Below are positions 3,850 through 48,957 of a DNA stretch of 64,000 bases, piece by piece. Below the pieces are notes generated by a model that did no database searches, was not told the origin of the DNA, and worked only from the letters and a program-made list of their open reading frames with translations. Made by a program: the position numbers and the translations under genes. Source of the stretch: Octopus vulgaris (Eukaryota); assembly GCA_951406725.2 (NCBI GenBank), contig OX597815.1:3658001-3722000 (forward strand), written 5' to 3'. The number at the start of each line of letters is the position of its first letter. Position 1 is the stretch's first letter.

Positions 3850-3966
3850 CCGTTTTATATTTGGTTTGTAAGATTCTTTATGTGAATTCGTGCGTTGAAG
3901 CATATTTTGTTGTGTCTGGGGAGAGACATTCCCTTTTAGTGCTTTATTACTTAAAACACTCACCGG
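3850..3966 (-). mobile_element. Fragment of the repeat family seen at 22311-22553 and 30997-31075
   Basis: Shares GTAAGATTCTTTATGTGAATTCGTG...GTTGTGTCTGGGGAGAG with the other copies; next to (TA)n. Confidence 0.65.
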
Positions 3967-7649: not shown

Positions 7650-8481
7650 ATTGTAACCTCATCTCCTTCGAGAGAGTCACTTTGCGAGCTATTTACCGGT
7701 CCCAGAGTTCTTTCCACTTTTGGAATCCAGCCTGGAAGTCGCTTTCCGTAAGTGATTCGCTCTGGATTTCGACAACGGTGTTAAAACGGTGACCTTTGAA
7801 CTGCATTTTCATCTTGGTTATGAGATGAAAGTCTGCTGGTGGTAAATCCTGGGAATAGAGCGAATGCGGAAGTAACACCATGTTGTTTTGGGCGAGAAAC
7901 GCACGAATGAGGTGAGATCGGTAACCGGGTGCATGGTCGTCGTAAAGAATCCAATTCTTCGCACACCAAAGATCCGGTCGCTTTCGCAGAATCTCATCCT
8001 TCAAACACTTCAAAACAACACAGTAGAACTCTCGATTGATGGTAAGGACCCGGTGGTGGTGGTGGCGAATTCTCGACGTATAGTACTGCGGATGTCGGTG
8101 AAAATCATGAGCAGGCTCTTTATGGAACTGCGACTCTGTCGTGCCTTTTTTTTTTTTTTTGTCGTGGAGATGAAGGCTTCTTCCACTGTCACGGCTGCTG
8201 CTTCATCGTGCACAATATCTGTGTAGCAGGCTTCCTGAGTTTATCGCAAAATTTAAGAATGGTTTTTTGCTCCATCTTTCTGTCCATGACAAAATCGCAG
8301 ACTACGACATGTACGTAATCACAAGAACACAAATTTAACAATTTGCAAAGTGAAGAGAGCGATATCATTTGGCACACTGCCCATTGAAGGTCACTGCTGG
8401 ATCTCACTGCGCAAGCAACCAAGTGCTGCCATCTGTTGGCGCACGACGAGTCAAATCCAGGAACTTTTTGATGCTACATCG

Positions 8482-9733: not shown

Positions 9734-9945
9734 AGTTAATCCAAACAAGAAAGCACAAAAAAACACAACAACGCGAGGACGTGGAGCAAATATAGTATTA
9801 TTGGACGCTCAGGAAAGAAGGAAAGAAGGAGGGTTTAACGTTTCGAGAGGAGCTCTTCGTCGGAAACATAGGAGAATGAAAGATCCAGAGAAGGGAAGAC
9901 AGAGGAAAAAAAATCGCCAACGGTACACACGCGGTCACATTTTCA
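9734..9945 (-). mobile_element. Hammerhead-bearing pLTR-like module, copy 2
   Basis: Same family as 2700-2912; motif at 9833-9867 with one helix II substitution; abuts (TA)n. Confidence 0.7.
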
Positions 9946-10346: not shown

Positions 10347-10506
10347 AAAAGACAAAGACAGGTGGTGTACAAAACAGATGTATTAGTATAACGCCCAGGA
10401 ATTGAAACAGTCTTTTACGTTTCGAGCCTACGCTCTTCTACAGAAAGGGACACAGAAAAAAGGAGAGTTAAAAATCTGTGCAGTGGCTACCGATCTATCA
10501 TGGTGA

Positions 10507-12276: not shown

Positions 12277-13052
12277 AGACACTTTCTTTTTTATATATAA
12301 GCGCACAAATATCAATGTTATACTAATCAATACTTGTTATGTTCTCTCTCATAATTGAAGCTGAGCGATGAGGTTAGATTTCGAGCAAATGTTTGCAGCA
12401 TCCAAGTCTTCTTTCTCCTCTCCAATCCAGCATATCTTGTTGTTGTTGTTGATGTTGTTGCTGTTTTTAATAAAACTTCATAAATCGGAATTAACTGCAA
12501 TTTTCTTACGTATACATACGAGCTTCCGTATATTTTGGGATCTGTAGGGATCACGTGTAGAGACGGTCGATCGCTGCCATTTACCAAACAGATTAATATC
12601 ATTAGTTATAAGCTGGTCTTTCATACATATGAGGGAATCGGCATTGTGTACCATTCTGTTCGAATATAGCACAATTATGGAAAACATTGAATGCGGACAA
12701 ATTCTTCGGAATACGAAGGTAGAGTTTTGAGTTTCTGGTTCATCCAACTTGAGCTGGCAGAATCCATAGCACGCCGAACAAAATGCTTGGCGGCATTTCT
12801 TCCGGCTTTACGATCTGAGTTTAAAATAAAGTCATTTCTTGCGTTTTAATTTCTCTTTTTTCATAGTTCCTTACATTAAGTGGCTTCTCGCTTCGTTTGG
12901 GACTTTCAATTAATACACACACACACACGCAAGACACACTCACATATACAAAAGGTGAAATCCAGATATACTCACTTTAGAAAACACGTACTAATGCTTA
13001 AATGAGTTTGAACTTAAGCTCCGAATTCTTCAGCCAAGGTGCACCACGTCGG

Positions 13053-13317: not shown

Positions 13318-13387
<70 letters not shown>

Positions 13388-13436
13388 AACAAAAGTCAAG
13401 ATAGAAAATGCTAAAATAATTTTATAAAAAACATTT

Positions 13437-13474
13437 CAGTACCGGTTTCAGTCATTTTGAGACCTTTTCAACTG
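13437..13474 (-). ncRNA. Minimal type-I hammerhead ribozyme-like motif, U3-A8 variant
   Basis: Minus strand reads CAG-TTGAAAA-GGTC(TCAAAAT)GACT-GAA-ACCGGT-A-CTG. Helix I CAG/CTG, helix II GGUC/GACU, palindromic helix III ACCGGU, GUA site. Confidence 0.7.
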
Positions 13475-13619
13475 TAACAATTAAATAATTAAATTTAGAA
13501 AAATTAAATGAAAAGTTTTTTTAAAAGAATATTTGTATAGTGTTCAAATACAAGAGGCATTTTCCTTGTTTCTGCCTGTCTCTGTCTCTCTTGTTCACAC
13601 TTGTGGGTTATTCATCTAT

Positions 13620-13830
13620 TCTTTTATTCTTTTACTTGCTTAAGTAATTTGACTGCGAGCATGCTGGAGCACCACCTTGGAGGGTTTTAGTCGAACAAAT
13701 CTACCCCAAAGCTTTTTTTTTTTTAAGCTGAGCACTTTTTCTATCGGGCCCTTTTGCCAAACCGCTATTTTTACGGGGACGTAAACACACCAACGCCGTT
13801 TCTCAAGCGGTGATGGACGGACAAACACAG
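13620..13830 (-). mobile_element. SINE S2 tail half
   Basis: CTTTTACTTG...CATGCTGGAGCACCACC...TACGGGGACGTAAACACACCAAC. Confidence 0.8.
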
Positions 13831-16170: not shown

Positions 16171-16171
<1 letters not shown>

Positions 16172-16531
16172 TATCAATACCGGCTGATGACAACGTGTCT
16201 CTAAAAGAAATGGAGAAACTCTCAAAATACAAAGACCTGGAAATAGAGGTAACTAGAATGTGGAATCTGAAAACAGAAACAATTCCTATCATAGTAGGTG
16301 CATTAGGCATGATAAAAAAATATTCAGACAAATACATAACAAAAACACCAGGACTTACAAACACATATAACATACAGAAAATTGCACTACTAGGCACTGC
16401 ACACATCCTACGCAGAACACTTTCCATACAATAACCATCAGAGCATCACAACAAATCACAGCACATACCCAAGGCACACAGAGCTGCGCTTGGTAGTGAA
16501 GTGAAAGCACGCTATAAAAATAAAACTACTG
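16171..16531 (+). mobile_element. R4/Dong-type 3' end
   Basis: [31 protein letters not shown]...IIVGALG...LLGTAHILRRTLSIQ*; (TAA)n on both sides; same subfamily as 40501-40702. Confidence 0.85.
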
Positions 16532-16789: not shown

Positions 16790-17753
16790 CTAAATGATAA
16801 ATGGCAAGAAAAACCTCTCAATGGCAAATAGCCGAAGAGAGCGAATAATGTCGATGTTGACAAACCCCTGACCCATGGCTAATGGCCTCTGGCTTAAAAT
16901 CTGAAACATAAGGGTTTATCATAGCAGTTCAAGATCAATGCCTACCTACAAGGAACTACCACTCTAACATATTAAAGAACGGCAGTAGCCCAACATGTCG
17001 TGTATGCCGACAACAAAATGAAACCATTGATCACATTGCCTCCAAGTGCAGTCTTCTAGCGCCTACAGACTATCTCAACAGGCATGATAGAGCTGCACAA
17101 TATATTCACTGGGTAATTTGCAAAAGCCTGGACTTACCCAATGATAAAAACTGGTGGGGACACAAACCACCTCCAGTGCTTGAAAATGACCACATCTCAC
17201 TCCTTTGGAACTTCACCATTCAAACTGACAGAAAGATAGATGCGGATAGGCCAGACATTATATTGAAAGACTTCAGACAAAAAACATGCCTCCTCATTGA
17301 TATGACTGTCCCAATCGATATAAACGTATCTGTCAAGACCTACCAAAAACTGAGCAAATATAAAGATCTTGAAATAGAAATCAGCAAAATGTGCAACCTG
17401 AACACTAAAACAATACCTGTTGTTGTAAGTGCCCTGGGAATGATAGCAAAAGGGGCTGATCGCTACCTAACTCAGATACCAGGAAACCCCAAAATGGCAG
17501 AAATTCAAAAGATAGTGCTCATGGGAACTGCTCATATCCTACGCAAAATACTTTCTATGTAATCTCAAGTTTTAAAACAAACATAATTTTTGTATGTTTT
17601 TTTAGGCATTCACTCGTACAACTCTAAGTACGAAACCAAATATATGGCACACTAGGCATAACAACAACGTGAATTTTCCAACTTGTTGTCTCTTGAGGTC
17701 TCTGGGTGAGACTTTGAGCCAACTTGTACAAATGTAAAGCAAAAGTCAAACAG
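16790..17753 (+). mobile_element. R4/Dong-clade retrotransposon 3' fragment: CCHC knuckle + RLE domain (pseudogenised)
   Basis: GLKSET*GFIIAVQDQ, CRVC-X8-H-X4-C (CRVCRQQNETIDHIASKC), [27 protein letters not shown]. Contains stops and a frameshift; ends in (TAA)n. Confidence 0.9.
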
Positions 17754-22279: not shown

Positions 22280-22310
<31 letters not shown>

Positions 22311-22553
22311 GTTGTGTCTGGGGAGAGTCATTTTCTTTTTGTGCCTTATAATGTAACACACTCGACTATTGAAAAGGTTGCAAGACGCAACGAAAATTTT
22401 AGGAAAATAAAAATAAGAAATAAGTGGAAATTTTACCGGAAATTCTATAAGGCACAAAAAAAAAATAACTCACCCCAGACACAACAGAATATGCTTCAAC
22501 ACACGAACTCACATAAAGAATCTTGCAAACCAAATCCAAAAACAAACCACATA
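22311..22553 (+). mobile_element. pLTR-like module: 40-bp inverted repeat enclosing a U3-A8 hammerhead-like motif and AATAAA
   Basis: Arms at 22311-22350 and 22446-22485. Motif 22366-22402 reads CTA-TTGAAAA-G-GTTGC(AAGAC)GCAAC-GAA-AATT-T-TAG. AATAAA at 22406-22411. Confidence 0.65.
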
Positions 22554-22946
22554 TAAATGTGTTGTTCATAAAAAAGAAGAGAAAAAGCACTCAATACATA
22601 TCACAGAGTATAGACTGTCACGGTCATCTGATTGATCGGATACGGGGTCAACTTGATGTAACAAGCAGATATATGCTCACATCTGTATTTATGGGGACAG
22701 GTTTGATCTGATGGTCAAAGCATTGGTTCCACTCCCTCGGGTTGTGTGAAGCATTGTGCCCCTGATGAAGGCGCATTGTTTTAGATTGCTTCAGTTTATT
22801 CAGATGAAAGTAAATACCATCAATTGCTTGGGGGCAATACTGACATGGGCTGGTCGTTACATTAGGGAGGGCATTTTATGTATCCTCGGGCGCTTAAGGC
22901 TGCAGAGACAGTCAGGTGTAAGCTTTGATTAAATGGTTGTGTGTTT

Positions 22947-42324: not shown

Positions 42325-42720
42325 GCTCTGTGGTAAGAAGCTTGCTTCCCGATCACATGGCTCCGGGCTCAGTCTCACTGCGTGGCACTCAGGGCAAGTG
42401 TCTTCTACTATAGCCCTAGGCTGGCCAAAGACTTGTGGGTGGATTTGGAAGACGGAAACTGAAAGAAGCCCATCGTATATACACTCACACACGCTCACAC
42501 ATACATATGTATGTATGTATTTGTGTGTATGTATGTGTCCCCTTGCCATCGCTTGACAACCGATGTTGATGTGTTTACGTCTCCGTAACTTAGCGGTTCG
42601 ACAAAAGATACCGATAGAATAAGTACTAGGCTTACAAGGAATCAGTCCCGAGATCGATTTGTTCGACTAATGGCGGTGCTCCAGCATGGCCGCAGTCAAA
42701 TGACTGAAACAAGCAAAAGA
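42325..42720 (+). mobile_element. SINE S2 (near full length)
   Basis: Head, internal microsatellite and tail GGCGGTGCTCCAGCATGGCCGCAGTCAAATGACTGAAACAAG. Confidence 0.85.
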
Positions 42721-42959: not shown

Positions 42960-43833
42960 TATTTGTTTTTATCACAGCTTTTGTTGCAACTCCTGGAGTC
43001 ATACATATGTAGCGGTCTTTCTGCCTGCAGCCTTCGGTGCCATGCTATCTGTTCTTTTCAACTATCGACTGCTTTCCTGATTATTTTCGCCGTGCCAAGG
43101 AGGGAAACCTTTTGTAACAGTTACCACTGGGCACTCTATTCCAATTTCCTTTATATTCCTCTTGATACCTTCTGATATTGTTTCCAAGGATCCAACAATA
43201 ATTGACACTATCTTCACCTTCTTCATTTTCCATAGCCAGGCTATTTCATACTTAAGTGGGTTGCATCATTCTATCTTTTCGCCTTCCTTCTTGATTAGTC
43301 ATGACTCAAATGGGCAAGAACATTAACTATATAGCACATGGGGTGCATCATGTCCACCACCACTAGGTCCGGTCTGTTATGCTCTAGCACGGGATTTGTT
43401 TAGATTGGAAAATCCCAGAGGATTTTGCAAGTCTCCAACTCCGCCACTCTCTGCGGTTTGTGCTCATACCACGTCTTGATTCTCTCTGGTCCCCACTTTT
43501 CGCAGTTTCCAGTGTGGCACTTCCGCTACCTTATCGTGTCGCCACAACTTGTAGTGGTTTTGGGCAAGTGTAGAGCATTCGTTCGTGACATGAGAAATGG
43601 TCTCATCCATTCTATTGCAGATGCGGCACAGCGGAGTCACTTGCTCATTCCTAAGGTTGACCAGATCTCGGTCTTGCACTATAGTGCTCGCGGTCTCTTT
43701 TTCCAATGTTCCTTTCTTCAGCTAATTCCCCCTATTTTTTCCAGCAACTTCTGTTGTGGATACATGGAAGTGATTGTGTTGTCCCTTGTTGCGAAATGTT
43801 TCCGCATGTCCTTTCTGTACTTCTTTGTATTTC

Positions 43834-45398: not shown

Positions 45399-45976
<578 letters not shown>

Positions 45977-48747: not shown

Positions 48748-48957
48748 TAATCCAAACAAGAAAACAAAAACAAAAACAAAAAACACAACAACGCAAGGAC
48801 GTGTAACAAATAAAGTATTATTGGACGCTCAGGAAAGAAGGGAAGAAGGAGGGTTTGACGTTTCGAGCGGAGCTCTTCGTCGGAAACATAGGAGAAGGAA
48901 AGATCCCGAGAAGGGAAGACAGGGGAAAAATCGCTAGTGATACAGACGAGGTCACAT
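48744..48957 (-). mobile_element. Hammerhead-bearing pLTR-like module, copy 3 (GUC site)
   Basis: Minus 48853-48887 reads GTTT-CCGACGA-A-GAGC(TCC)GCTC-GAA-ACGT-C-AAAC; (TA)n on both sides. Confidence 0.7.

Follow-up and report, generated by a model that had tools for sequence, protein, structure and literature searches.

Locus and motif

The window analysed here, a stretch of 64,000 nucleotides from Octopus vulgaris (contig OX597815.1), is rich in microsatellites and holds several interspersed repeat families. On its minus strand (13474-13437) it carries a 38-nt hammerhead motif, all of whose named elements lie at the coordinates given in a preliminary description of this DNA, which left the strand unstated. 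The motif belongs to one copy of a dispersed repeat that adjoins a (TA)n tract. The features are listed with the evidence for each in brackets.

13386-13566 or beyond, minus strand: a copy of the abundant dispersed repeat in which the motif lies (contigs of four runs)
About 13386-13393, minus strand: 3' end of the repeat in RNA sense (loose ends of contigs)
13321-13385, no strand assigned: (TA)n microsatellite into which the repeat likely inserted (tract and TA-rich loose ends)
13437-13474, minus strand: minimal type I hammerhead motif with a U3-A8 core and a 6-nt palindrome (sequence, descriptor and shuffles, sub-threshold Hammerhead_HH9 match)
13474-13472, minus strand: helix I 5' strand, CAG (sequence)
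13471-13465, minus strand: catalytic core U3-U4-G5-A6-A7-A8-A9, UUGAAAA (strict descriptor)
13450-13464, minus strand: helix II of 4 bp, with GGUC at 13464-13461, a 7-nt loop and GACU at 13453-13450 (sequence)
13449-13447, minus strand: G12-A13-A14 (sequence)
13441-13446, minus strand: palindrome ACCGGU, which needs a second copy to form helix III (self-duplex and self-dimer model)
13440, minus strand: A17 of the GUA site (sequence)
Between 13440 (A17) and 13439, minus strand: predicted cut (motif layout)
13439-13437, minus strand: helix I 3' strand, CUG (sequence)

The arrangement is that of minimal hammerheads: helix II lies between UUGAAAA, the U3-A8 variant of the CUGANGA core, and GAAA (13449-13446), positions 15-16 belong to a palindrome followed by an NUH cut site, and the 3 bp of helix I are continued by three further pairs beyond one mismatch. 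Two features that are usual, but not universal, in this class are absent from the 13437 copy, in which pair 10.1-11.1 is G-U and no bulge follows A9. Membership of the class is not excluded by the missing G-C pair and bulge, because published members such as the motif of the shrimp Marsupenaeus japonicus also lack them. The preliminary description had credited the motif with all helices. Its elements are indeed present, but helix III consists only of a palindrome in need of a second copy, and helix II, in which four pairs are possible, begins with a G-U wobble and reaches a probability of only 0.21 in the modelled monomer. Its assignment to the minimal, dimer-type hammerheads stands, and U3-A8 is, as it says, an established variant (PMC3088659, PMC4209133).

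With a strict descriptor, which demands a C3-G8 or U3-A8 core, at least 4 bp in helix II, a perfect 4- or 6-nt palindrome and three Watson-Crick pairs in helix I, two matches were found in the 64,000-nt window, with cores at 13471 (minus) and 22369 (plus); when the 40,084 unmasked nucleotides were dinucleotide-shuffled 400 times, none appeared. A looser descriptor found six matches, against a shuffle mean of 0.007 (2 of 300 shuffles contained one). In Rfam, no match, whether to the hammerhead clan CL00010 or to any other entry, reached the gathering cut-off anywhere in the window. Hammerhead_HH9 matched 13418-13485 (minus) with 16.9 bits against a cut-off of 52 and an E-value of 0.11; this was the lowest E-value among six weak Rfam matches over 13386-13640, and its strand and place are right.

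A chance look-alike, or a mere stem-loop like that in the tail of an abundant SINE, is an extremely unlikely account of the motif. At several sites in the window, the SINE tail does agree with the motif's 3' half in 14-15 of 18 positions, and the Rfam score is far under the cut-off. The tail, however, lacks the 5' core and the palindrome, the shuffles yield no such motif, and the family of the 13437 repeat keeps helix II with compensatory changes, whereas none of the eight exact pattern matches in microbial collections has a helix II. Those eight matches (none in viral contigs, three in metagenome contigs, five in bacteria or archaea) have 0-1 bp in place of that helix and were set aside as chance. 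The motif at 13437 is a real minimal hammerhead sequence of the published U3-A8 variant.

The repeat family

Contigs of four public runs (X1, X3, X14 and X12, from organisms coded A, B, E and A; X12 is guessed to be RNA) were aligned to 13386-13610 at 80% identity, and the covered part was 13391-13566. The aligned contigs number 3789 in X1, 2385 in X3, 1430 in X14 and 49 in X12. Depth is unbroken over 13391-13566, which places the other end of the repeat at or beyond 13566. Among the pieces listed, none extends over the whole of it. The summed depth in X1 is 8-9.6 x 10^5 over the repeat, compared with 26-40 for the eight long pieces listed, and suggests a copy number of the order of 10^4, a rough figure since depth is no copy number.

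At the 3' end, the loose ends of contigs before 13391/13393 are TA-rich and mutually unlike, with an agreement of 0.47-0.68 (93 and 24 contigs in X1, 63 and 25 in X3, 45 in X14). Such heterogeneous, TA-rich ends are what dispersed insertions into (TA)n give. At the 13437 copy, 54 nt separate the cut site from (TA)5. The hammerhead thus lies close to the 3' end of the repeat, as it does in the terminal repeats of Penelope-like elements (PLEs), and the many dispersed copies in (TA)n or AT-rich DNA are a further PLE trait, one not unique to PLEs. No fragment of a PLE reverse transcriptase or GIY-YIG domain was found among 120 of the 137 unmasked ORFs of at least 55 aa in the window, as expected for a short copy; the other 17 had been excluded by eye, mostly because they lie within interspersed repeats. 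By analogy, the repeat may be assigned to a Penelope-like element. We consider it probable that the locus holds a minimal hammerhead in one copy of an abundant repeat with the geometry of a PLE 3' end (pseudo-LTR). The repeat family and its (TA)n junction, both missed by the preliminary description, explain the motif.

The 64-kb window contains neither a tandem unit at the 13437 copy nor a second copy of the stretch 13386-13625. GAAACCGGT occurs four times with at most one mismatch, and only the occurrence at 13437 also passes the core-and-helix scan. Joints to the opposite strand were seen at 13456-13519 in a single X1 contig and a single X3 contig, and at 13432-13549 in one contig of X3.

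These data also bear on the main alternative, a rather unlikely one, in which the repeat is a non-autonomous unit only a few hundred bases long, retrozyme- or SINE-like, that is transcribed, cuts itself and is copied in trans by a PLE protein, the window showing a near full-length monomer. In each of the four runs the summed depth stays level across about 170 nt and drops towards 13545-13566, X1 and X3 are dominated by a single, little-diverged subfamily, and retrozymes with dispersed monomers have been derived from PLE pseudo-LTRs (bioRxiv 10.64898/2026.07.22.740005). The drop in depth, however, borders 13567-13610, outside the covered part, and may be an edge effect. Moreover, the 3' loose ends differ from one another, where a tandem arrangement would place the head of the next unit, and the window shows no tandem unit.

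Core and helix II across the family

The variant data comprise 40 of 64 rows, the loose-end data exclude 271 further rows, and the pairing of letters derives from consensus sequences of loose ends and per-site shares rather than from whole-copy alignment. U3 is nearly fixed in two runs: a C at position 3 occurs in one X1 contig (depth 19 of 772,759) and in no X3 contig, and further in six X14 contigs (440 of 1,730) and one X12 contig. The preliminary description had treated U3-A8 as a compensatory change informative about the 13437 locus. Judging from the contigs, it is instead an inherited trait of a repeat family with many copies and not a one-off compensatory mutant. No exchange between C3-G8 and U3-A8 was seen within the family among the 40 of 64 rows, which include none for position 8; the six C3 contigs of X14 may be relatives carrying a broken C3-A8 core. 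Among the same rows, neither 13438-13449 nor 13465-13470 holds a variant, against 16 variable positions out of 19 in 13475-13493. The variant-free stretches hint at a conserved core, a reading that hinges on the rows listed and on alignment bias.

Helix II differs between subfamilies. C11.1 accounts for 83% of the summed depth in X1, 70% in X3, 69% in X12 and 15% in X14, and pair 10.1-11.1 is G-C in the X1/X3 majority, compared with G10.1-U11.1 in the 13437 copy. In the loose ends behind 13456 (68, 73, 56 and 1 contigs), this pair is A-U and the loop is 2 nt shorter, and the variant rows at 13464 and 13455/13457 agree with this A-U subfamily. Pair 10.2-11.2 is A-U in 12 X14 contigs behind 13449. 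Each consensus end with a changed helix II pair keeps the UUGAAAA core. Covariation of helix II between subfamilies is thus shown at the level of the consensus ends.

Among the listed rows, the 13437 copy and the X1/X3 majority have different letters at 13450, 13479 and 13509. At 13450 and 13479 the majority has CpG and the 13437 copy CpA, and the G-U pair would fit methylation decay of a CpG. It would equally fit an intermediate of an older sublineage on the evidence of X14, in which the X1/X3 majority letters are in the minority at 13450, 13479 and 13509 (15%, 0% and 25%, respectively).

Other hammerhead-like motifs in the window

The second match of the strict descriptor belongs to another repeat, which has the following features.

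22366-22402, plus strand: second minimal hammerhead with U3-A8, with a bulged G, a 5-bp helix II with G10.1-C11.1, an AAUU palindrome and a UUU site (descriptor and fold model)
22310-22560, no strand assigned: repeat copy with the second motif, in which 22310-22350 recurs inverted at 22446-22486, 93% alike (window self-comparison)
3853-3961 and 30997-31070, no strand assigned: related pieces lacking the motif and starting beside TA-rich tracts (window self-comparison)

The preliminary description had presented this motif as an independent occurrence of the same variant. The 7-nt core is identical to that at 13471, on the plus strand and in a repeat that otherwise shares nothing with the one at 13386-13566, but an independent origin is not supported. 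In Rfam, 22310-22570 gave sub-threshold matches of hairpin type and no hammerhead. A heterodimer of the 13437 and 22369 motifs is ruled out by their opposite strands and different palindromes.

The six motifs found with the looser descriptor fall into four families, with cores at 2831, 9863, 48883, 10443 and 13471 (minus) and 22369 (plus). In five of the six, representing three of the four families, (TA)5 lies 54-113 nt downstream of the cut site; as background, 18% of 3,990 random positions have it within 105 nt. Since this holds for five of six window motifs, the layout of a hammerhead followed by (TA)n is general in the genome of this window.

Three of these motifs (2801-2835, 9833-9867 and 48853-48887, minus) form one other repeat family with the core CCGACGA (U4 to C) and an ACGU palindrome, each motif being located 102-113 nt upstream of (TA)n. 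The hammerhead-like motif at 10412-10447 (minus) has the core CUGUAGA (A6 to U) and an ACGU palindrome and is separated from (TA)n by 69 nt.

The tail of the abundant SINE was seen at 45500, 50297 and 11594 (minus) and at 42697 and 63537 (plus), with the 14-15 of 18 match to the 3' half of the motif mentioned above. It comprises a hairpin, GAAAC and, in four of the five places, GUA, and has no 5' core or palindrome. The likeness may be due either to chance or to half a hammerhead acquired from a PLE.

Predicted folding and the question of cleavage

According to the folding model, the hammerhead is not the fold adopted by the monomer: its probability is 0.002, that of the helix II pairs 0.21, and a different hairpin that buries G12-A14 is favoured (-5.7 versus -2.4 kcal/mol). 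Helix II rises to 0.25-0.49 when 6-25 nt of flank are added, to 0.61-0.69 in a self-dimer of the 13437 copy, and to 0.89 when the family-majority letter replaces that of the 13437 copy. The helix I pairs have probabilities of 0.85-0.90. A competing pairing of U3 with A17 has a probability of 0.83 in the 13437 copy and 0.67 with the majority letter. Pairing of C3 with G17 is the presumed cause of the impairment of minimal hammerheads carrying G17 (PMC3884650), and by analogy the U3-A17 pair may act in the same way.

The ACCGGU self-duplex is worth -8.3 kcal/mol, and the palindrome pairs with a probability of 0.51-0.55 in the self-dimer. The double-hammerhead fold of this self-dimer lies 3.1 kcal/mol above the optimum, compared with 9.7-26.2 kcal/mol for the other five motifs; on the folding model, the 13437 motif thus retains its rank as the best candidate of the window. 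Nearest-neighbour energies leave out the tertiary core. Because of this, and because helix II reaches 0.61-0.69 in the self-dimer, some cleavage by an engineered dimer of the 13437 copy is plausible.

The preliminary description had further proposed that cleavage could affect a host pre-mRNA. We regard as very unlikely an active intronic ribozyme that cuts its host transcript, whether it acts by itself, together with another copy in trans or with the aid of a PLE protein. All core positions fit the U3-A8 variant, natural examples of which are stated to be active in vitro in a paper citing other work (PMC3088659), and the motif has the best double-hammerhead energy of the six. Yet no host gene was identified by Pfam among the 120 of 137 ORFs searched, a search that would miss short exons, and the 64 kb contain no second copy of the ACCGGU type, the motif at 22369 being on the other strand with another palindrome. 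In addition, published monomers of this class were inactive (PMC4209133), and in the folding model the closing pair is G-U and U3 pairs with A17. Although the 49 contigs of X12, guessed to be an RNA run, belong to the family, none of them spans the 13437 locus, and contigs give neither strand nor ends. The proposal is therefore not sustained by the window.

Relation to published elements

Minimal hammerheads sit in the pseudo-LTRs of PLEs; most are single, dispersed motifs left by truncated elements, and such motifs number in the thousands (PMC4209133). The U3-A8 variant has about 1,300 matches in Schistosoma mansoni, where one example, S. mansoni (4), is a full Cercyon element with the UUGAAAA core at each end (PMC4209133). 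In the same paper, a lone minimal motif, of family Sm1, showed no cleavage, and that of dimers and trimers was weak; the dimer model is summarised in PMC6765202. PLEs have a pseudo-LTR structure and a (TA)n insertion bias, and the function of their hammerhead is described as still open (PMC8557442). The hammerhead of an Anolis PLE, an element with an AT-rich target, needs the element's protein and is not required for insertion in vitro; in what PMC11167929 presents of it, no RNA reads end at the cut site. Animal retrozymes derive from PLE pseudo-LTRs, occur as dispersed monomers and are depleted in introns (bioRxiv 10.64898/2026.07.22.740005).

PLEs are abundant in octopus, with 31 families recently active in Octopus vulgaris (PMC13282606, PMC8967140). 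Hammerheads are not described from octopus repeats in the literature we searched, which did not extend to the survey of this class by Lunse et al. 2017, where such motifs may be included. The main text of the 2026 O. vulgaris repeat paper (PMC13282606) has no occurrence of the words 'ribozyme' or 'hammerhead', and 'octopus' is absent from two of the three supplementary files of PMC4209133.

Several published systems resemble the 13437 motif (PMC4209133 for the first two). With the U3-A8 minimal hammerhead of S. mansoni Cercyon it shares the UUGAAAA core, a short helix I, palindromic positions 15-16, the absence of helix III in the monomer and the thousands of dispersed single copies. It differs in having no bulge after A9, a 4-bp helix II, a 6-nt instead of a 4-nt palindrome and, in the 13437 copy, G-U at 10.1-11.1. 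Two U3-A8 examples in the supplement have U or G where the 13437 motif has A17. The PLE motif of M. japonicus (Fig. S3) likewise lacks the bulge and has a 4-bp helix II, a 6-nt palindrome and A17, and its A-U first pair of helix II matches the second (A-U) subfamily of the 13437 family. By contrast, its core is the canonical C3-G8, its helix I has 5 bp and its sequence is otherwise different. The Neptune-like MjPLE01 named in PMC8557442 may be the element in question.

The animal non-LTR retrozymes (bioRxiv 10.64898/2026.07.22.740005) share with the 13437 repeat a non-coding nature, a type I hammerhead, kinship to PLE pseudo-LTRs and dispersed monomers. They are defined as tandem hammerhead units, however, whereas the 13437 copy is single in the window and the 3' ends of its family have heterogeneous flanks adjoining (TA)n. 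Finally, Poseidon of Anolis carolinensis (PMC11167929) also has a hammerhead near the end of an inserted pseudo-LTR piece and an AT-rich target, but it is a full element with an ORF and has a canonical C3-G8 core. By analogy, it is the best functional model for this class of hammerheads.

Proposed origin and role

The source of the repeat would be a PLE family, autonomous or derivative, of which the 13437 sequence would be a short copy that entered a (TA)n tract. Two motifs in a tandem transcript of the source element would pair through their ACCGGU palindromes to form a double hammerhead, a dimer mechanism that we infer by analogy. The double hammerhead would cut after GUA, probably slowly and with the help of the element's own protein, and, judging by published PLEs, the cut would trim the precursor RNA. 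Selection on the fold would have acted in the family and not at the 13437 locus, where the copy is a putative passenger. Most likely this copy does not cut, because it has no partner nearby, its helix II is weakened by the G-U pair and its U3 can close on A17.

A more elaborate possibility is that the hammerhead is attenuated and switchable, U3-A17 acting as the inhibitory 3:17 pair known from C3-G17 mutants and helix I holding a splice acceptor, so that splicing or a PLE protein would turn cleavage on. The 13437 copy would then be a surviving G-U intermediate on a path from A-U through G-U to G-C at 10.1-11.1, with G-C marking the most amplified subfamily. The helix I 5' strand is an acceptor-like CAG after an AT-rich tract (13472-13505, minus), and AG stands directly 5' of U3 in most subfamily ends (one X14 subfamily has UG there). 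In Drosophila virilis, an intron ends at helix I (PMC4209133). No splice joint at 13472 was present among the 15 joints listed. We hold this extended reading to be improbable; if it were true, sense intronic copies, in a family of the order of 10,000, could be cut whenever PLE protein is made, for example in octopus neurons.

On the preferred reading, a passenger copy of a PLE-type repeat, the 13437 locus itself matters little, being a single representative of a known kind of motif that exists in thousands of copies. The family is of modest use. The effect of PLE hammerhead activity on amplification is still open (PMC8557442, PMC11167929), and a family fixed for U3-A8 with A17 and divided into subfamilies with compensatory helix II pairs offers a natural series for testing it.

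Further open frames and repeats in the window

At 12481-12807 (minus), a 109-aa open frame lies mostly in non-repeat DNA, has plausible splice signals and looked exon-like; it matches nothing in Pfam, and among longer proteins it has no homolog, which is weak evidence. The frame at 7693-8202 (minus), which we take to resemble a piece of a mariner-type transposase, has no Pfam match. Seven ORFs gave weak Pfam matches, all under the curated cut-offs, and two of these are zf-RVT matches of LINE pieces, at 16912 and 43467. LINE 3' pieces adjoining (AAT)n lie at 16912-17559 (plus), 1677-1925, 16171-16431 and 43467-43721; all four are presumably Dong/R4-like.
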